This document shows, in pieces, positions 40-10,454 of a stretch of 10,454 nt of DNA; positions within the stretch are counted from its first letter, which is position 1; each line of letters begins with the position of its first letter. The DNA is from a virus (lineage: Duplodnaviria > Heunggongvirae > Uroviricota > Caudoviricetes), in the IMG/VR virus record IMGVR_UViG_2541047595_000021; one strand, written 5' to 3'. A program made the translations under genes and the position numbers. The notes beneath the pieces were generated by a model, which worked only from the letters and a program-made list of their open reading frames with translations, was not told the origin of the DNA and made no database searches.

Positions 40-402
40 GGGGCTGATTCTGGATTCGACGGGATTTGCGAAACCCAAGGTGCATGCCGAGGGGCGGTTG
101 GCCTCGTAAAAAGCCGCAAAAAATAGTCGCAAACGACGAAAACTACGCTTTAGCAGCTTAATAACCTGCTTAGAGCCCTCTCTCCCTAGCCTCCGCTCTT
201 AGGACGGGGATCAAGAGAGGTCAAACCCAAAAGAGATCGCGTGGAAGCCCTGCCTGGGGTTGAAGCGTTAAAACTTAATCAGGCTAGTTTGTTAGTGGCG
301 TGTCCGTCCGCAGCTGGCAAGCGAATGTAAAGACTGACTAAGCATGTAGTACCGAGGATGTAGGAATTTCGGACGCGGGTTCAACTCCCGCCAGCTCCAC
401 CA
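40..402 (+). ncRNA. ssrA: tmRNA (transfer-messenger RNA, SsrA), 363 nt
   Basis: Begins GGGGCTGATTCTGGATTCGACGGG (tRNA-like acceptor 5' half) and ends GGTTCAACTCCCGCCAGCTCCACCA (T-arm plus CCA). Contains the tag-peptide frame at 129..161. Matches the enterobacterial tmRNA as I recall it. Confidence 0.93.
129..161 (+). other. tmRNA tag-peptide reading frame ANDENYALAA plus stop
   Basis: gcaaacgacgaaaactacgctttagcagcttaa translates to A-N-D-E-N-Y-A-L-A-A-stop, the canonical E. coli-type degradation tag. Confidence 0.88.
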
Positions 403-586: not shown

Positions 587-1792
587 GTGGCAAGAACGAC
601 ACGCCCCCTGACCAACACAGAAGTTCTGCGCGCTAAAGCGTTAGAAAAGGATCTAACGTTACATGATGGCGATGGCCTTTTTCTGCTCATTAAAACGAAC
701 GGTAAGAAGTTGTGGCGTTTCCGTTATCAACGTCCAGCAACAAAACAGCGGACAATGATGGGGCTTGGTGCTTTCCCCGCCCTTTCACTTGCTGATGCTC
801 GACGGTTAAGAGCGGATTACCTTGCTTTGTTGGCTAATGGTATAGACCCACAAGTTCAAGCTGAATTTATCGAAGAACAACAACAGATAGCTCTAGACAG
901 TATTTTTTCGACTGTTGCGACCAACTGGTTCCAGATAAAAAGCAAAAGTGTTTCCCCTGATTACGCTAAAGATATATGGCGCTCGCTGGAAAAAGACATA
1001 TTCCCAGCCATTGGAGAGATTCCCGTCCAACAAATCAAAGCCCGTACGCTAGTCGAAGCTCTTGAGCCAATCAAAGCTCGTGGGGCTCTTGAAACTGTAC
1101 GTCGACTGATACAGCGGATTAACGAGATAATGATTTACGCTGTAAACACTGGTCTGATTGATGCCAATCCAGCATCGGGGGTTGGGATGGCCTTTGAGAA
1201 GCCCAAAAAGCAAAACATGCCAACATTGCGGCCAGAAGAATTGCCGAAGCTGATGCGTTCTTTAGCTATGTCAAACCTATCTGTTTCGACTCGCTGTCTC
1301 ATTGAATGGCAACTCCTGACACTTGTGCGTCCTTCTGAAGCCTCTGGTGCTCGTTGGGCAGAGCTCGATCTTGATACAAAGCTCTGGACTATTCCGGCAG
1401 AGAGAATGAAAGCCAAACGAGAGCACATTGTTCCTTTATCACCCCAAGCTTTAGATATTTTGGAAGTGATGAAGCCCATCAGTGCTCATCGTGAACATAT
1501 TTTTCCTAGCAGAAATGATCCTAAGCAATCAATGAATAGCCAAACTGCTAATGCAGCTTTAAAACGTATTGGTTTTGGAGGAAAGCTAGTTGCTCATGGC
1601 CTCCGATCTATTGCAAGTACAGCAATGAATGAAGCTGGGTTCAATGCGGATGTTATTGAAGCAGCTTTAGCTCACAGTGATAAAAATGAAGTTCGTAAAG
1701 CCTATAATCGTTCAACCTACCTGGTTCAAAGAAAAGATTTAATGAACTGGTGGGGATTATTTTGTATTAGTTCGAAGAGTGTGAATAAATGA
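587..1792 (+). CDS. int: Tyrosine recombinase, P4-type integrase (N-terminal arm-binding DUF4102-like domain), ssrA-specific
   Basis: GTG start with AAGGAG 9 nt upstream. N-terminus LTNTEVLRAKA...DGDGLFLLIKTNGKKLWRFRYQ is the typical P4-integrase arm-binding motif. C-terminal catalytic motifs HGLRS and AHSD...RKAYNRSTY (H-x-x-R ... Y). Directly adjacent to a tmRNA gene. Confidence 0.9.
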   Translation: MARTTRPLTNTEVLRAKALEKDLTLHDGDGLFLLIKTNGKKLWRFRYQRPATKQRTMMGLGAFPALSLADARRLRADYLALLANGIDPQVQAEFIEEQQQIALDSIFSTVATNWFQIKSKSVSPDYAKDIWRSLEKDIFPAIGEIPVQQIKARTLVEALEPIKARGALETVRRLIQRINEIMIYAVNTGLIDANPASGVGMAFEKPKKQNMPTLRPEELPKLMRSLAMSNLSVSTRCLIEWQLLTLVRPSEASGARWAELDLDTKLWTIPAERMKAKREHIVPLSPQALDILEVMKPISAHREHIFPSRNDPKQSMNSQTANAALKRIGFGGKLVAHGLRSIASTAMNEAGFNADVIEAALAHSDKNEVRKAYNRSTYLVQRKDLMNWWGLFCISSKSVNK

Positions 1793-3426
1793 ATACTTAT
1801 AAGCAAACCATTAAACAAAAATCAAGATTAAACATATGGGAAACAGCTATCGCAAGGTTGACAACCCAAGCTGAGAGCTCAAGAATCTTAGAATCAAACT
1901 ATTTAACAAATCTTATAGATTTTTGTTGGAAAGATACACTAAATCAAGTTGCTATATATGATGAGAGCATTGTATTACGCAATGGTTATAATTGGGTGCA
2001 AAAAATAAGTGATAGTTATAAACCTAAAGCTGCAAGTGAACTAAAGATTGCTTTCTTTTGCGGCCCTGAACCAGAAAATGACTTGGATATACTCTTATCA
2101 TTAGATGTTAGAATAGAAAATGTCTGGGCTTTTGAAATTGATAACAATTCATATAACACTGCCTTACAAAAAGCTAAAGAGTTCTATCCAAAATTAAAAA
2201 TATTCCCTGGTTCTATTGGGGAGTTTTTTAAAACCACACATCATACCTTTGATATTATTTACCTTGATTTTACAAGTTCGTTATTGACTAAAAAGAGCCC
2301 TCCCCTTGGAGTAATAAACTCTGTATTTGACAATCAGGCCCTATCAGACTTAGGGGTGTTAATTGTAAACTCTTGCGAACCCGATGCTAACGAAGATAAC
2401 GCAACATTTCTTGCAAGTTATTTCATGAATCACGAAATAATTGAATCATCTGTAATTAACAAAACTAATGATGATGATTATGATGATAACTATGATTATT
2501 TTTCACTTTTTATTGAATCCCCCACATCACAAGGATACGATGATATAAAGTCATTAGCAAAAGTTATAAAGACTAACATATCCGGAGCGTACTCTGCCTT
2601 TTCAACAAGTTATGTAATGCACTATGCTTCAATGATTAGTCCAACACTTCGTTTTCTACAAAATAACTCATTAAAAAGACAATTATTTAATGATAAAAAA
2701 GCTGAAGTAACTGCAACCTTTGCAGAAATTGGATCAACTGACTTTTTCAAAACATTAATATCAACAGATGGTGAAGCATCGTCCCCCTCCATTTTAGGAA
2801 ACAGATTCCTAGATAATGAAAGCTACCCATTCTGGAATTTCATTGATTCATTAAATGGCTCAGGAACAAGTATTTCATCTTACTTTAAGAGCTTTTTCAC
2901 CACCGCTAAAGAAGGTGTATCCATTTTAAATGCCGTGCAATTTCTGGAATCATTTCACTCAATGCTTACAGGAGCTAGAAAGCTATTATCTCAGCGAATG
3001 CTCAATGCAATACCCCAAATAATAAAAGCAATTCCTGATGCTAGAGGTGGTTTATTCTGTGACATTCCTTTACCCCACCTTTGGTTAGAGGTGGCACTTA
3101 ATCAGTTAGGTGCACCATACCATGTAAACGTGAAAATGCATAATCGATGGAAATATAAAGCAAAAACTCGCACAATGCATACGGACTTATTTGTTTTTGA
3201 TAGATGCAGAGGTTTTTATGACTCAATGCCTATGATAGATCAATACGAAACGATTCTTACTAACATCGAAGAACAAATTTTCGCTAGGTGTTGTATTGAT
3301 ATTATTGGTAAGCAATGTCGTTGGCCAACTCCAAAACTTTATTTTGGTTCGAACCTAATTGGAATAAACGAGTCTGATTGGTCTGAGTTCGCCGAACTTC
3401 GTGAAAGAGAAATTATAAAAGAATAA
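1789..3426 (+). CDS. Hypothetical protein, 545 aa; sole cargo gene in the int-to-cos hotspot; candidate anti-phage defence or abortive-infection protein, function unknown
   Basis: Long uninterrupted ORF whose ATG overlaps the int stop (ATGA). Strongly AT-rich with AT-rich codon usage (AAA, AAT, ATT, TTA), unlike the GC-rich psu/delta/sid/alpha backbone. Residues about 85-165 (KIAFFCGPEPEND...VWAFEID...FDIIYLDF) look like a Rossmann-type nucleotide-binding fold, but this is a weak guess. Acidic D/Y-rich segment NDDDYDDNYDY encoded at 2467..2499. Confidence 0.8.
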   Translation: MNTYKQTIKQKSRLNIWETAIARLTTQAESSRILESNYLTNLIDFCWKDTLNQVAIYDESIVLRNGYNWVQKISDSYKPKAASELKIAFFCGPEPENDLDILLSLDVRIENVWAFEIDNNSYNTALQKAKEFYPKLKIFPGSIGEFFKTTHHTFDIIYLDFTSSLLTKKSPPLGVINSVFDNQALSDLGVLIVNSCEPDANEDNATFLASYFMNHEIIESSVINKTNDDDYDDNYDYFSLFIESPTSQGYDDIKSLAKVIKTNISGAYSAFSTSYVMHYASMISPTLRFLQNNSLKRQLFNDKKAEVTATFAEIGSTDFFKTLISTDGEASSPSILGNRFLDNESYPFWNFIDSLNGSGTSISSYFKSFFTTAKEGVSILNAVQFLESFHSMLTGARKLLSQRMLNAIPQIIKAIPDARGGLFCDIPLPHLWLEVALNQLGAPYHVNVKMHNRWKYKAKTRTMHTDLFVFDRCRGFYDSMPMIDQYETILTNIEEQIFARCCIDIIGKQCRWPTPKLYFGSNLIGINESDWSEFAELREREIIKE

Positions 3427-3441
3427 ATCTCCACGCGCGCA

Positions 3442-3460
3442 GTGCTTTCCCCGCCTCGCC
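3442..3460 (-). other. cos: cos site: 19-nt cohesive-end sequence of P2/P4-type phages
   Basis: Plus strand reads GTGCTTTCCCCGCCTCGCC, the reverse complement of GGCGAGGCGGGGAAAGCAC, which I recall as the shared P2/P4 cohesive end. Position between the hotspot and psu matches the P4 prophage layout. Confidence 0.65.
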
Positions 3461-3563
3461 CGCCCGCTTTGCGGGGCGGTTTTAATGCAGTTGCACTGAC
3501 ACGCTCAGACCGCGCTGGGAATGGCGCGGTTTGCAGAAAATGAGGCAGGGAAACGCATGCAAA

Positions 3564-3594
3564 GCCATGCACCTTATCGATGCATGGCTTTTTT
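3564..3594. terminator. Hairpin terminator between cos and psu (perfect 8-bp stem, T6 on the plus strand, A-tract on the other side; possibly bidirectional)
   Basis: GCCATGCA-ccttatcga-TGCATGGC followed by TTTTTT. Lies just past the 3' end of psu (minus strand) and downstream of the cargo gene (plus strand). Confidence 0.55.
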
Positions 3595-3624
3595 CAGTAA
3601 AAACGGGCGGATTTTCGGGGAATT

Positions 3625-4197
3625 TTACACTGACTGACGTGATGCAAGTTGCGCACTTTTACGCGAAAAAATCATGTTCTGCGCAGGGGTGAATTTTTCA
3701 CGGCTGTCATCCACCGAAGCCACGTCAGGCCTGAATCCGATGGTCGTTAAAATGTCGCTATCCTGTGCGGAATAATTAATTTTTTCACCCTTCGCAAGCC
3801 AGGACAGAAGGGCTTCACGCAGGGCATCTGTGGCACGCTGTATGGCACAGTTTCGGGCAATGGCCGTCAGCTCACTGTAGCCCATCAGCTCCGGTGCCAG
3901 TGCGGCCGCCAGTACTGTGCCGTGCTGCTGCATAAAATCATTCAGCCGGTCGCGGATGCTGATGTGCTGAACGGCTTCATGCGAACGAATATAACGACCG
4001 GCGGCCTGATTCACCTGCCATTTTCTGACTTCGATAATATTGCGTAATTCGTCCAGGCGGCTGACGTTTCTGCCTTCTCCTGACAGAAGCCGCAGATATT
4101 CCTGTTCGGCCGCTGCCAGCTCATTTTTGCGTTGCAGCCATGCTGCTTTGTTATTCTGACAGGTGTCAAAGGCCTGCTGTAAGGCTGTGCTTTCCAT
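3625..4197 (-). CDS. psu: Psu (polarity suppression protein; capsid-decorating, Rho-antagonist), 190 aa
   Basis: 190-aa ORF starting MESTALQQAFDTCQNNKAAW, as I recall P4 Psu. Correct position and orientation at the end of the sid-delta-psu operon. Confidence 0.85.
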   Translation of the reverse strand: MESTALQQAFDTCQNNKAAWLQRKNELAAAEQEYLRLLSGEGRNVSRLDELRNIIEVRKWQVNQAAGRYIRSHEAVQHISIRDRLNDFMQQHGTVLAAALAPELMGYSELTAIARNCAIQRATDALREALLSWLAKGEKINYSAQDSDILTTIGFRPDVASVDDSREKFTPAQNMIFSRKSAQLASRQSV

Positions 4198-4270
4198 CGT
4201 TATCTCTTTCTCATCATGCTGAAGAATAAAAATACGGTGTGCGGCGACGGCCGGGGTTAACCGGCAGCCC

Positions 4271-4771
4271 TCATTCCAGACGCAGCGAATATGATTGTGT
4301 TTTTAACCGTACTGGCGGCAGTTCCTGTTTTTCATGCAGGCGTTCTGCCAGTTCGTCCGGCGTGACCGGGCGGACAATGAAGCGGGTGATGGTCTGAAGC
4401 GTTTTAAACACCAGACCACAGTCCGGATCCGTGCACACATAAAAACGCTCGGTGACTTCCTGAGACAGACGCCGCGATGTTCTTGACAGCGCAAGGCCTT
4501 TACATCTCCGACAACAATATCCGGTAACAAGCATTCTTTTCGGGCGTTTCATACTGCCGGAGGCTGACGTCAGTGAATCGCGGTATCTCTGTTTGCCTGA
4601 AATGTATTCCATTCCTGAATCTTTACTGTCAGAGAAAAAGCTTTCACTCGCTTCAAATGTCTCAGAGCAATAAATATTCCGGCACTGTGCAATCATTATC
4701 TTGGTGCCATCGTCCATGAAATGTGCGCGACGGGTGTGAGCAACATGTCCACACGACGGGCAGTAAATCAT
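4271..4771 (-). CDS. delta: Delta (Ogr/Delta-family zinc-finger late transcription activator, duplicated Ogr-like domains), 166 aa
   Basis: Two C-x2-C...C-x4-C zinc-finger units (CPSCGHVAH...CRNIYC and CCRRCKG...CTDPDC) typical of Ogr/Delta. Length 166 aa as in P4. Start overlaps the sid stop (ATGA). Confidence 0.85.
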   Translation of the reverse strand: MIYCPSCGHVAHTRRAHFMDDGTKIMIAQCRNIYCSETFEASESFFSDSKDSGMEYISGKQRYRDSLTSASGSMKRPKRMLVTGYCCRRCKGLALSRTSRRLSQEVTERFYVCTDPDCGLVFKTLQTITRFIVRPVTPDELAERLHEKQELPPVRLKTQSYSLRLE

Positions 4772-6321: not shown

Positions 6322-6917
6322 TGATGCCCGCTCTGCAAAAACTCCCTTTTTCTGGCTTGCCTTTTTCCGGCATTTGCGGATATAGTTTTCCCGCTGCCGC
6401 AAAATCGGCAGCCGGGCGTGGAAACCCGAGCAATCTAACGGCGACATATGACGCGCCATGCGTCTTTTTTTGTGTCGCAATCAACGCCACAGAGCGCCAG
6501 ATTATGGTGTGGTGTGTGGTCAGTCGAGCAGATGGCACTCCGTGCATCCTGCCCGCGTCCGCTCATTATGCCGCAGAGTCAATGGTAGCTCAGGCGGGGC
6601 AGCCTCCGGGCTGGCCGGTATCCGTTAGAGCCGGTATTTCCACCCCCGTCTGGGCTATCGCCATCGAGCGTGGAAACTCCGGCGATAGCGTAACCTGCTA
6701 TCTAACGGAGGCTGCCATCATGGCTACAACCCTTACCCCTTCACACCCTGAATTTGTCTTTGTGTTTGCGGCTGTCCGTCGCGCAGACCGTCATCCCCGT
6801 ATCTGCATGCTTCGCACCGTCGCCGGTGATGAACGCAGTGCCCGCCGTTCCCTTGTCCGTGACTATGTGCTCTCCCTTGCTGCCCGTCTGCCGGTGGTGG
6901 AGGTGTCCCGTGCGTAA
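6318..6917 (+). CDS. Long ORF (199 aa from the ATG overlapping the vis stop) spanning the immunity region; possibly kil-like with a nested in-frame gene, or largely spurious
   Basis: Open frame across a GC-rich regulatory region. Its ATG overlaps the vis stop (ATGATGATG). P4 is reported, as I recall, to have nested kil/eta genes in this region. No good ribosome-binding site, and long spurious ORFs are common in this GC-rich stretch. Confidence 0.3.
6357..6386 (+). promoter_or_regulatory. Candidate sigma70 promoter (PLE-like): -35 TTGCCT, 18-nt spacer, -10 TATAGT
   Basis: Hexamers at 6357..6362 and 6381..6386, just downstream of vis and upstream of the seqA element. Pattern match only. Confidence 0.35.
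6418..6441 (+). promoter_or_regulatory. seqA-like element (GTGGAAA...TCTAACGG), RNA target complementary to seqB
   Basis: Contains GTGGAAA and TCTAACGG separated by 9 nt. The reverse complement of 6622..6643 contains the same two blocks. Confidence 0.5.
6450..6471 (+). terminator. Short hairpin plus T7 tract; possible intrinsic terminator or attenuator within the immunity region
   Basis: GACGC-gccat-GCGTC followed by TTTTTTT. The stem is only 5 bp, and the position between seqA and seqB is awkward if seqB must be transcribed from the same promoter. Confidence 0.3.
6622..6643 (+). ncRNA. cI: seqB-like core of a putative CI-type immunity RNA (antisense to seqA and seqC; RNA ends undetermined)
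   Basis: CCGTTAGAgccggtaTTTCCAC is the reverse complement of the GTGGAAA...TCTAACGG blocks found at 6418..6441 and 6669..6708. This three-way arrangement matches the P4 CI RNA immunity system as I recall it. Confidence 0.45.
6669..6708 (+). promoter_or_regulatory. seqC-like element; its TCTAACGG block overlaps the Shine-Dalgarno of the ORF starting at 6720
   Basis: GTGGAAA (6672..6678) and TCTAACGG (6701..6708), with the GGAGG ribosome-binding site at 6707..6711. A 9-bp hairpin (6652..6660 with 6681..6689) encloses the GTGGAAA block. Confidence 0.5.
6720..6917 (+). CDS. Small protein, 65 aa (eta-position nested ORF), function unknown
   Basis: ATG at 6720 with a strong GGAGG 8 nt upstream. 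In frame with, and nested in, the longer ORF. Its stop overlaps the GTG start of the next gene. Confidence 0.45.
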
Positions 6918-7780: not shown

Positions 7781-8101
7781 ATGAAAACACCCTTACCGCC
7801 CGTCTTACGCGCTGCCCTTTACCGTCGCGCTGTCGCCTGTGCCTGGCTGACCGTGTGCGAACGTCAGCACCGCTACCCGCATCTCACCCTTGAGTCACTG
7901 GAAGCGGCCATCGCCGCTGAGCTGGAAGGCTTTTATCTGCGCCAGCACGGTGAGGAAAAAGGGCGTCAGATAGCCTGTGCCCTGCTGGAAGATTTAATGG
8001 AATCCGGCCCCCTGAAGGCCGCGCCGTCGCTGTCCTTTCTCGGGCTGGTTGTGATGGATGAACTCTGTGCCCGTCACATAAAAGCGCCGGTACTGCACTG
8101 A
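7781..8101 (+). CDS. Conserved P4-family protein orf106 (106 aa), function unknown
   Basis: 106-aa ORF immediately upstream of alpha, as in P4. A 21-codon upstream ORF (7719..7784) ends in an ATGA overlap with its start. Confidence 0.65.
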
Positions 8102-8115
8102 AGGAGAACAACACC

Positions 8116-10454
8116 ATGAAAATGAACGTAACCGCCACCGTCAGCCATGCGCTCGGCCACTGGCCGCGTATTCTCCCGGCGCTGGGGATTCAGGTGCTGA
8201 AAAACCGTCATCAGCCCTGTCCGGTCTGTGGCGGGAGTGACCGCTTCCGTTTTGATGACAGGGAGGGGCGCGGCACCTGGTACTGCAATCAGTGTGGTGC
8301 CGGTGACGGCCTGAAACTGGTTGAAAAGGTGTTTGGTGTCTCCCCGTCCGACGCGGCCGCAAAGGTGGCTGCCGTGACCGGCAGCCTGCCCCCGGCTGAC
8401 CCGGCAGTGACGGCTGCCGCCGGTGCTGAAACAGACGCTGCCCGGAAGAACGCCGCCGCACTGGCACAAACCCTGATGGCGAAAACCCGTCCCGGAACCG
8501 GTAACGCCTACCTGACCCGCAAGGGCTTTCCCGGCCGGGAATGCCGGATGCTGACCGGCACACACAGAGCCGGTGGCGTGAGCTGGCGTGCCGGTGACCT
8601 TGTGGTGCCACTGTATGACGACAGCGGCGAACTGGTTAACCTTCAGTTAATCAGTGCTGACGGCCGTAAGCGCACCCTGAAAGGCGGACAGGTCAGGGGC
8701 ACCTGTCACACCCTTGAAGGACAGAATCAGGCCGGAAAACGTCTGTGGATAGCGGAGGGATACGCGACCGCACTTACCGTGCATCACCTGACCGGTGAAA
8801 CGGTGATGGTGGCGCTTTCTTCCGTGAACCTCCTTTCTCTGGCCAGCCTTGCCCGGCAGAAGCATCCGGCCTGTCAGATTGTCCTTGCCGCAGACCGTGA
8901 CCTCAGCGGTGACGGCCAGAAAAAAGCCGCCGCAGCCGCAGATGCGTGTGAAGGTGTTGTTGCCCTGCCGCCGGTCTTCGGTGACTGGAATGATGCCTTC
9001 ACGCAGTACGGCGGGGAGGCCACCCGTAAGGCCATTTACGATGCCATCCGGCCACCGGCTGAAAGCCCGTTCGACACCATGAGTGAAGCGGAGTTTTCCG
9101 CCATGAGTACCAGCGAAAAGGCCATGCGTATCTATGAGCATTACGGCGAGGCGCTCGCGGTCGATGCCAACGGCCAGCTTCTGTCCCGCTATGAAAATGG
9201 TGTCTGGAAGGTGCTGCCGCCACAGGACTTTGCCCGGAATGTGGCCGGGCTGTTTCAGCGGCTGCGCGCGCCGTTCTCCTCCGGGAAGGTGGCCTCCGTG
9301 GTGGACACCCTGAAGCTGATTATTCCGCAGCAGGAAGCCCCCTCCCGCTGCCTGATTGGCTTTCGTAACGGCGTGCTCGACACGCAGAACGGCACGTTCC
9401 ACCCGCACAGTCCGTCACACTGGATGCGTACCCTGTGCGATGTGGATTTCACCCCGCCGGTGGAAGGGGAAACGCTGGAAACCCACGCCCACGCGTTCTG
9501 GCGCTGGCTTGACCGTGCCGCCGGTGGCCGTGCGGAAAAACGCGACGTGATTCTGGCCGCACTGTTTATGGTGCTGGCAAACCGCTATGACTGGCAGCTC
9601 TTTCTGGAGGTGACCGGTCCCGGCGGCAGCGGCAAAAGTATCATGGCCGAAATAGCCACCCTGCTGGCCGGGGAGGATAACGCCACGTCGGCCACCATTG
9701 AGACGCTGGAATCCCCGCGTGAACGTGCCGCGTTAACTGGCTTCTCACTGATACGCCTGCCGGACCAGGAAAAATGGAGCGGCGACGGAGCCGGACTCAA
9801 GGCCATCACCGGCGGCGATGCAGTGTCCGTTGACCCGAAATACCGGGATGCGTACTCCACGCATATCCCGGCGGTGATTCTGGCCGTGAACAATAAAATA
9901 ACCCGATGCGCTTCACCGACCGCAGCGGCGGCGTGTCACGCCGGCGGGTGATTATTCACTTCCCGGAACAGATAGCCCCGCAGGAGCGCGACCCGCAGCT
10001 TAAGGACAAAATCACCCGCGAGCTGGCGGTCATCGTGCGTCACCTGATGCAGAAGTTCAGCGACCCGATGCTCGCCCGGTCACTGCTTCAGTCCCAGCAG
10101 AACTCAGACGAGGCACTGAACATCAAACGGGATGCCGACCCGACGTTTGATTTTATCGGCTATCTGGAAACCCTGCCGCAGACCAGCGGCATGTATATGG
10201 GGAACGCCAGTATCATCCCGCGTAATTACCGTAAATACCTCTATCACGCCTATCTGGCCTACATGGAGGCAAACGGCTACCGGAATGTACTCAGTCTGAA
10301 AATGTTCGGGCTGGGGCTGCCGGTGATGCTGAAGGAATACGGACTGAATTACGAGAAGCGCCATACCAAACAGGGGATACAGACCAACCTGACACTGAAA
10401 GAGGAAAGCTACGGCGACTGGCTGCCAAAATGTGACGCCCGTGCAACAACCTGA
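8116..10454 (+). pseudogene. alpha: Alpha primase-helicase (zinc-ribbon primase, TOPRIM, SF3/D5-type helicase, C-terminal DNA-binding domain), interrupted by a +5 frameshift near 9892..9901
   Basis: AAGGAG ribosome-binding site 9 nt before the ATG. Zinc-ribbon CPVCGG...CNQC, TOPRIM acidic motifs (IAEGY, LAADRD), Walker A VTGPGGSGKS. Reading frame 1 stops at 9951 and frame 0 continues from 9906 to the stop at 10452..10454. Combined length is about 777 aa, as for P4 alpha. The breakpoint coincides with a tandem AATAA-AATAA. Confidence 0.75.

Follow-up and report, generated by a model that had tools for sequence, protein, structure and literature searches.

The stretch of DNA analysed here (the window, 10,454 nucleotides, IMG/VR record IMGVR_UViG_2541047595_000021) holds a P4-like satellite whose cargo is a single gene coding for a 545-residue protein of an unnamed methyltransferase-fold family. 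The genes follow the order int, cargo, cos and psu, and the cargo is the sole gene between the integrase gene and cos/psu (Table 1). The cohesive end is matched exactly at 3442-3460 (chance expectation 0), and the sequence from 3461 to 4300 is a 99.3% match to the final 840 nt, i.e. the right end, of the linear P4 genome. A cos segment of about 75 bp is common to P2 phages. Reference P4 is 99% alike over psu and cos and does not carry the cargo gene. Further backbone genes include a sid-like open reading frame (ORF), alpA, a DUF5375 gene and the alpha primase-helicase gene. A first-pass annotation of the window, made from the sequence alone, had placed the cargo gene in the variable defence hotspot of P4 satellites between int and cos/psu. 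The cos match, the P4 alignment and the gene order bear this out, and the content of the slot varies between elements. This slot has been recognised as the principal hotspot of P4 defence (Rousset et al. 2022, PMC9122126; Moura de Sousa et al. 2026, PMC13586616), and six out of eight randomly picked unknown cargo loci of the hotspot were protective on testing (PMC13586616).

Exactly one ORF, of 545 amino acids (aa), occupies the region from 1789 to 3426, as first described. It is confirmed to be real and not a chance ORF, because a run of 545 codons without a stop has a probability of about 7e-19 at the composition of the gene. Comparison with the orthologues from Klebsiella aerogenes and Photorhabdus (85% aa identity) gave a ratio of non-synonymous to synonymous substitution rates (dN/dS) of 0.06-0.10, with values of 0.08-0.10 at a dS of about 0.8-1.1, a ratio that indicates strong purifying selection on the cargo gene. 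Its composition had been called foreign to the GC-rich backbone, and the GC profile agrees: GC content is 0.34 overall, compared with 0.5-0.6 for the backbone, and 0.29-0.39 in 300-nt windows, against 0.47-0.66 in the remaining element. At third codon positions it is 0.26 in the cargo gene, 0.37 in int and 0.55 in psu. The final 300 nt or so of int are already AT-rich (GC 0.37).

The overlap of the cargo gene with the int stop, also part of the initial description, was recovered as well. The TGA of int (1790-1792) and the ATG of the cargo gene (1789-1791) form an ATGA at 1789-1792 that reads AAATGAATA, and an AAGAG motif is situated 9 nt upstream of the cargo start. No promoter-like site above chance was found directly upstream of the cargo gene, and we therefore infer that it is co-expressed with int. 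Given its translational coupling to int, the cargo gene is unlikely to have a native promoter in the 200 bp that precede it.

An unnamed protein family with a predicted methyltransferase core

The cargo protein could not be assigned to any family when it was first annotated, and profile searches lead to the same result. The protein has no match in Pfam, NCBIfam, PADLOC v2 or PHROGs, with no Pfam family at E<=0.1 and no PADLOC-DB v2.0.0 family at E<=10. A Pfam scan of all 56 aligned members of the family returned merely sub-threshold generic methyltransferase matches. Sequence searches of the PDB with the protein and two profiles gave nothing significant (best match YrrM, E 0.6), and structure search of BFVD gave only weak matches to the methyltransferase core. 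The family was not found described in a literature search that covered the protein accession and the papers on P4 hotspots, retron classification, DefensePredictor, domain-centric discovery and integron defence. Systems named after 2023 were compared through the literature only, PADLOC v2 dating from 2023.

A word-indexed search recovered 163 homologues, nearly all of full length (510-590 aa), from Enterobacterales, Vibrio, Aeromonas, Burkholderiales, Paenibacillus, a myxobacterium and Methanosarcina. They are labelled 'hypothetical', apart from a few automatically named 'class I SAM-dependent methyltransferase' (SAM, S-adenosylmethionine). An exhaustive profile search, clustered at 50% identity, produced 522 clusters, of which 239 fall below 1e-30, and extends the family to many bacterial phyla and one archaeon. 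Nearly every cluster spans the whole profile in a single stretch, typically as one protein of about 530 aa, and the N- and C-terminal parts were never found apart among the clusters, fragments excepted. The cargo gene itself is carried by five of the 5426 complete Escherichia coli genomes, in all cases at ssrA, and its 90% cluster takes in Salmonella and E. albertii too. None of 50,697 phage records contains a member of the family, and three of 72,556 plasmids do, in uninformative contexts. Two members have unusual N-termini. The 777-aa protein P0175 joins a poly-gamma-glutamate-hydrolase-type domain (PF05908) to the family, and the 897-aa protein P0257 bears a zf-MYND finger and long low-complexity inserts, a combination that suggests a eukaryotic or giant-virus member.

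The AlphaFold2 model built from the 56-sequence alignment has a mean predicted local distance difference test score (pLDDT) of 91.5 and a predicted template modelling score of 0.93. It begins with a helical region in which Y4, K9, R13, L24 and T25 are universally conserved. The following domain has the Rossmann-like alternating alpha/beta fold of class I methyltransferases, and the G92 loop, E116 and D160 stand at predicted strand ends, where the cofactor motifs belong. On this model the core looks cofactor-competent. A Rossmann-type, possibly methyltransferase-like domain had been suspected in the first-pass annotation, and the predicted order of strands and helices together with the conserved motifs upholds the suggestion. 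The G-rich loop FFCGPEPE singled out at that time is found at residues 89-96. In the 56-sequence alignment, G92, P93, E94, P95, N97 and D98 are invariant. In a set of 76 sequences, made of these 56 members and 20 divergent ones, G92, P95, N97, D98, E116, D155, Y158 and D160 are kept in all or nearly all sequences of both branches. The residues after D160 vary: F161-T162 of the main branch are replaced by (A/G)-C in the second branch, where the aromatic residue at 161 is lost. A catalytic cysteine of the m5C type (D-A/G-C) was considered and rejected, the main branch having threonine at that position.

The core is followed by an acidic loop. The D/Y-rich patch that had also attracted attention in the initial description is indeed present there, but it belongs to a variable loop and is not a conserved functional element. 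The sequence of the loop is not conserved, yet the loop is acidic in most members (median net charge -3). The whole protein is acidic, with an isoelectric point (pI) of 5.3 and a net charge of -14.

Structural comparison of the C-terminal region (residues 251-545) gave no match to a known fold. This region contains a cluster of invariant polar residues (R453, Y456, K459, M463, D466, D471, R474, Q496, R500, D504 and R540). A PD-(D/E)xK nuclease and a zinc site were both considered for this block and rejected: C424, H451, C473 and C502 are not kept in the second branch, and the order of acidic and lysine residues is unsuitable. Modelled by itself, the C-terminal part reaches a pLDDT of 71.8 against 91.5 for the whole protein. 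This drop suggests one integrated catalytic body and not two modules.

Table 1. Coordinates of the features discussed. Positions refer to the window unless a locus (L) is named; residues are those of the cargo protein. RT, reverse transcriptase.
Feature	Coordinates	Strand	Remarks
ssrA (tmRNA)	40..402	+	chromosomal attachment site of the satellite; ARAGORN; Rfam 295.8 bits; annotated context
int	587..1792	+	P4-type tyrosine integrase; Pfam Arm-DNA-bind_3, Phage_int_M, Phage_integrase
Cargo gene	1789..3426	+	545-aa protein of unnamed methyltransferase-fold family; single ORF, ATG start, stop TAA 3424-3426
N-terminal helical region, residues 1-80	1789..2028	+	basic, family median pI about 8.9
Predicted class I SAM-methyltransferase core, residues about 81-220	2029..2448	+	
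Motif I FFCGPEPEND, residues 89-98	2053-2082	+	
Motif II VWAFE	2122-2136	+	E116 ends strand 2
Motif-IV-like FDIIYLDFT, residues 154-162	2248-2274	+	strand 4, D160
Variable acidic loop, residues 221-250	2449..2538	+	gap-rich alignment columns; pLDDT 62-75
NDDDYDDNYDY, residues 227-237	2467-2499	+	inside the acidic loop
Family-specific C-terminal region, residues 251-545	2539..3423	+	helical, one beta-hairpin (452-471)
cos	3442..3460	-	19-nt P2/P4 cohesive end, 15 nt past the cargo stop; exact match
Possible terminator of the int-cargo transcript	3460..3479	+	GC-rich hairpin then T-run; pattern scan, consensus match only; overlaps the cos region
psu	3625..4197	-	right-hand hotspot border; Pfam Psu 3.9e-88
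delta	4271..4771	-	P4 backbone gene
c4-a1b1 RNA	6380-6432		P4 immunity region
isrK RNA	6393-6470		P4 immunity region
C4 antisense RNA	6578-6665		P4 immunity region
P0043-clade gene	L075 7871-9529 (also L076, L077)		P2-like prophage slot
P0239 RT-fusion gene	L016 2012-5386		

Genomic contexts of the family

Neighbourhoods were compared over 57 loci gathered from species-representative genomes, the flanking ORFs of which were all clustered. No recurrent partner gene was found in them: the top neighbour cluster is present in six of the 57 loci, at a median distance of 3.8 kb. The commonest Pfam family among the 149 nearest ORFs is phage integrase, with three matches, and an Xre-type regulator is located upstream in just two of 58 loci. 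Judged from these neighbourhoods, each member forms a self-contained module of a single gene. At least nine of the 149 nearest ORFs (about 7%) match defence models at E<1e-10, the matches comprising RdrB (twice), mad2 (twice), PDC-S02, PDC-S06, AbiEi, ThsA, a type IV restriction endonuclease, PD-T4-6 and pPIWI. This count is uncontrolled and is suggestive of an association with defence. In Methanosarcina (L007 1-5612), a DEAD/ResIII helicase gene and the gene of a 1313-aa nSTAND NTPase are located about 2.4 kb and about 4.3 kb, respectively, from the family member; this group may be an archaeal defence island.

The gene moves as a one-gene cargo through three kinds of site that are defence or accessory hotspots, namely the int-cos slot of P4 satellites, a tail-gene slot of P2 and an integron cassette. 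Orthologues are found between int and psu/delta of P4-like satellites in Klebsiella aerogenes and Photorhabdus asymbiotica (84-85% identity) and in Rahnella (67%). The aa identities of int and cargo are 92 and 85% between E. coli and Klebsiella and 74 and 69% between E. coli and Rahnella, with a dS of about 0.8 for both genes (L012, L014, L018).

A second E. coli clade (P0043), 41% identical to the cargo protein, is carried by P2-like prophages, where it separates the gene for tail-fibre assembly from that of the sheath. None of its members was found in the 5426 complete E. coli genomes; they occur in draft assemblies only. The same tail-gene slot of reference P2 is occupied by one unrelated 299-aa gene, which in P2 genetics is Z/fun, a T5-exclusion gene. 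The P2 tail-gene region is a minor defence hotspot (PMC13586616).

The third kind of site is illustrated by Vibrio parahaemolyticus (L003), where the family gene (8001-9620) is a single cassette of a chromosomal integron array. It is bounded by attC-type repeats of about 130 nt (TAACAAA...GCGTTA) at 7826-7959 and 9626-9757. This repeat family has 12-14 copies, which also part the adjoining cassettes. The member thus resembles the phage-defence integron cassettes (BRiCs and those of chromosomal integrons) in being a one-gene cassette flanked by attC-type repeats. No methyltransferase-like cassette is mentioned in the integron-defence literature consulted, a scope outside which the Getz 2025 study of V. 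parahaemolyticus falls. Other conflict-type cassettes of the same array (L003 5000-16000), separated by the same attC-type repeats, code for T5orf172/MUG113, PLDc_2, NTP_transf_6, a Tse2-like ADP-ribosyltransferase and several GNAT acetyltransferases.

In two proteins, P0239 and P0262, which share 34% identity, a retron-type RT leads straight into this family at the C-terminus. Among PADLOC models, their RT part best matches RT-Protease_XI (5e-130 and 2e-116), RT-TIR_XII and RT-Toprim_I-C. The family part was aligned by hhalign with a probability of 98.8% over 416 columns, which cover the N-terminal helices, the methyltransferase core and the C-terminal block. The first 235 residues or so of P0239 are an apparent mis-called N-terminal extension. 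The nearest RT relatives (44-52% identical in the RT) bear other domains from the same position onwards: a pPIWI-associated nuclease, CHAT, DUF4435, TIR, DUF4062 or a trypsin-like domain. On retron RTs, the family and the classical toxic effectors can stand in for one another. The two fusions share their architecture with the single-gene retrons of RT clade 8 (I-C RT-Toprim, XI RT-protease and XII RT-TIR). The fusions described for this clade involve only Toprim, TIR and protease domains (Mestre et al. 2020, PMC7736814), so that a methyltransferase-fold effector falls outside the three, and the RT-family fusion is apparently an unclassified single-gene retron architecture. Concerning the retron non-coding RNA (ncRNA), nothing was found beside the RT fusion beyond a sub-threshold match to Acido-Lenti-1 (L016 2379-2434, minus strand; 27.3 bits against a gathering score of 37), which could mark the ncRNA region. 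The cargo protein of the window has no RVT_1 or PADLOC RT match and is accordingly not a retron. Compared with the clade 8 retrons, it lacks both RT and ncRNA and corresponds to the effector module alone.

Proposed function and alternative explanations

We propose, with a confidence that is about even, that the cargo protein is a candidate stand-alone anti-phage effector, more broadly an effector of inter-element conflict, that has not been described before, belongs to a new family and uses SAM-dependent chemistry. In the proposed mechanism, the gene would be transcribed and translated together with int through the ATGA coupling, and the protein would bind SAM. Upon infection, a methyl or other SAM-derived group would be moved to a phage or host molecule, or SAM would be consumed. 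Phage development might then be blocked directly, or the infected cell might be arrested. Recognition of the target, or sensing, would fall to the C-terminal region. As to the substrate, the motif past D160 is neither DPP(F/Y) nor PC and depends on the branch, and the overall acidity of the protein gives no nucleic-acid signal. The idea of a single-gene defence system had already been put forward in the first-pass annotation. It has since gained independent comparative support, since no partner recurs in the 57 loci and since the integron cassette, the P2-slot clade and the two RT fusions are known, and it remains a candidate.

It is well established that new immune systems can be found in the hotspots of P4 and P2. 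Single-gene cargo in the defence hotspot of a satellite is known; the protein family and the effector chemistry it implies are new. The effector chemistries of abortive or direct defence have so far been nucleases, NADases, proteases, pores and nucleotide depletion. If the cargo protein is protective, SAM-dependent group transfer or SAM consumption would join this short list, and the family would account for a retron type that has yet to be classified. P4 elements carry many unknown cargo genes, most of which are expected to be defensive. This family is distinctive by the breadth of the independent comparative evidence and by its unprecedented effector type. A single gene of 1.6 kb is easily tested, and its sparse multi-phylum spread supplies many orthologues for finding the target. 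We advance more tentatively, and rather doubt, the further-reaching proposal that the methyltransferase-fold enzyme acts as the immune weapon in its own right, rather than marking self for a partner nuclease, and represents a new class of single-gene defence and retron effectors. Upon infection it would modify a phage or host molecule that is essential, or use up SAM. If true, P4 satellites, P2 prophages and integrons would have this class in common, and its range would extend to archaea and perhaps to eukaryotes.

The position of the gene is shared with the single-gene cargo of P4 and P2 elements (e.g. the TIR system of Rousset 2022, Toga and Reve of Moura de Sousa 2026, and P2 Z/fun, old and tin), which likewise lies in a slot by cos and consists of one gene, sufficient by itself, in AT-rich foreign DNA. 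The protein families are unrelated, and the descriptions of the published cargo (TIR, KAP P-loop ATPase, Ppl/SMC-like) do not fit a methyltransferase fold. The systems described in P4 and P2 elements include PARIS, TIR, RT-nitrilase, Crouga, Bandua, Aernus, Toga, Reve and Hailong (PMC9122126, PMC13586616). None of those in the two papers fits the family, the supplements of PMC13586616 being outside the scope of the comparison. The restriction-modification, BREX, DISARM and MADS systems also encode methyltransferases with the SAM-methyltransferase fold in their defence loci. Those enzymes mark self DNA and work with nucleases or other partners, whereas the present family has no conserved partner. 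The cargo protein, in addition, lacks the signature motifs of DNA methyltransferases and does not match the models of these systems.

Several points weigh against a role as an anti-phage effector. No methyltransferase is known to act alone as a defence effector, so the proposed mechanism is without precedent; the literature search found no methyltransferase reported as either a defence or a retron effector. The overall acidity (pI 5.3) gives no hint of a nucleic-acid target. Many neighbourhoods are made of ordinary metabolic genes, and the defence enrichment is without a formal control. The RT fusion appears in two clusters only, both metagenomic. PADLOC v2 (2023) has no model of the family, and a very recent naming elsewhere is conceivable. 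Finally, int and cargo have diverged together and have long been linked, unlike the fast cargo swapping typical of P4 defence. Rapid turnover has been reported for P4 defence cargo (PMC13586616), to which the unusually stable linkage with int is a counter-example.

Three other explanations were weighed. The protein could be a non-defence accessory enzyme, i.e. an RNA, protein or small-molecule methyltransferase that brings another benefit to the host (stress, antibiotic or toxin tolerance) and hitch-hikes in cargo slots. We regard this as unlikely. The lasting linkage with int, atypical of defence cargo, would suit such an enzyme, as would the members amid ordinary metabolic genes and a sparse, patchy distribution like that of any accessory gene; non-defence functions also occur in integron cassettes and prophage morons. 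It is harder to reconcile with the recurrence in two distinct cargo slots of P2/P4, both documented as hotspots of defence, with the exchange on retron RTs for effectors of the TIR, protease and nuclease kinds, and with the proportion of nearest neighbours that match defence models. Sequence and size are moreover unlike those of known resistance methyltransferases. Among known enzymes, the class I SAM-dependent RNA base methyltransferases (Trm1, TYW2/Taw2, RsmD-like and TrmI) come closest, with identities of just 9-16%. The cargo protein differs from them by its unusual motif I (GPEPxND), by the lack of DPP(F/Y) or DPFG, and by additional basic N-terminal helices and a C-terminal region of about 300 residues; its family is carried on mobile elements and not in core genomes. 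Trm1 (Pfam TRM), which has a C-terminal tRNA-binding domain, is 15% identical over 212 aligned residues; the C-terminal region of the cargo protein has no structural match, and the protein does not belong to that family.

A defence protein of another kind is conceivable, in which the methyltransferase fold senses SAM, a SAM-like molecule or a phage ligand (e.g. the depletion of SAM by phage SAM lyases) and the C-terminal region is toxic. In favour of this arrangement, the residues past D160, which would position the substrate, differ by branch (F-T or A/G-C), and the densest invariant polar cluster, active-site-like in appearance (R453, Y456, K459, D466, D471, R474, Q496, R500, D504), falls within some 300 C-terminal residues of no known fold. 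Motif IV nonetheless has an invariant D160 in its catalytic place, the N- and C-terminal parts never separate except in fragments, and the model of the C-terminal part loses confidence when it is built alone. A sensor with a separate toxic region is, on these grounds, improbable.

An orphan DNA methyltransferase that marks satellite or host DNA against restriction (counter-defence) or acts as an epigenetic regulator, roles common among phage-borne methyltransferases, is quite improbable. Its appeal lies in the methyltransferase fold with intact SAM motifs, in carrier elements that are packaged and enter new hosts, in a divergent member that weakly matches the MADS methyltransferase model mad2 (E 1.4e-4), and in a FDIIYLD(F/A)(T/C) strand that resembles the FDxIxxDPP(F/Y) strand of amino-methyltransferases. 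Yet neither (D/N/S)PP(Y/F) nor PC is present, motif IV reading D-F-T in the main branch and D-(A/G)-C, without the aromatic residue at 161, in the second. There is no match to a DNA-methyltransferase family of Pfam or NCBIfam, and the top structural neighbours are RNA and small-molecule methyltransferases. The protein is acidic, and no cognate restriction or partner gene accompanies it in the window, where its neighbours are int and cos/psu. Phages commonly carry orphan DNA methyltransferases, whereas the family is absent from the 50,697 phage genomes. A place in the retron effector slot is hard to square with a self-protective mark, and no anti-defence genes were found in P4 (PMC13586616). 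The stand-alone effector proposed above is the preferred explanation.

Other features of the satellite

The alpha gene (8116-10454, plus strand) contains 5 bp (AATAA, about 9892-9896) that the intact 2334-nt copy of E. coli NCTC9699 lacks, and this insertion splits it between two frames. The satellite may be replication-defective, or the split may be a sequencing error. The RNAs of the immunity region (6380-6665) are intact, and long spurious ORFs overlie them on both strands.

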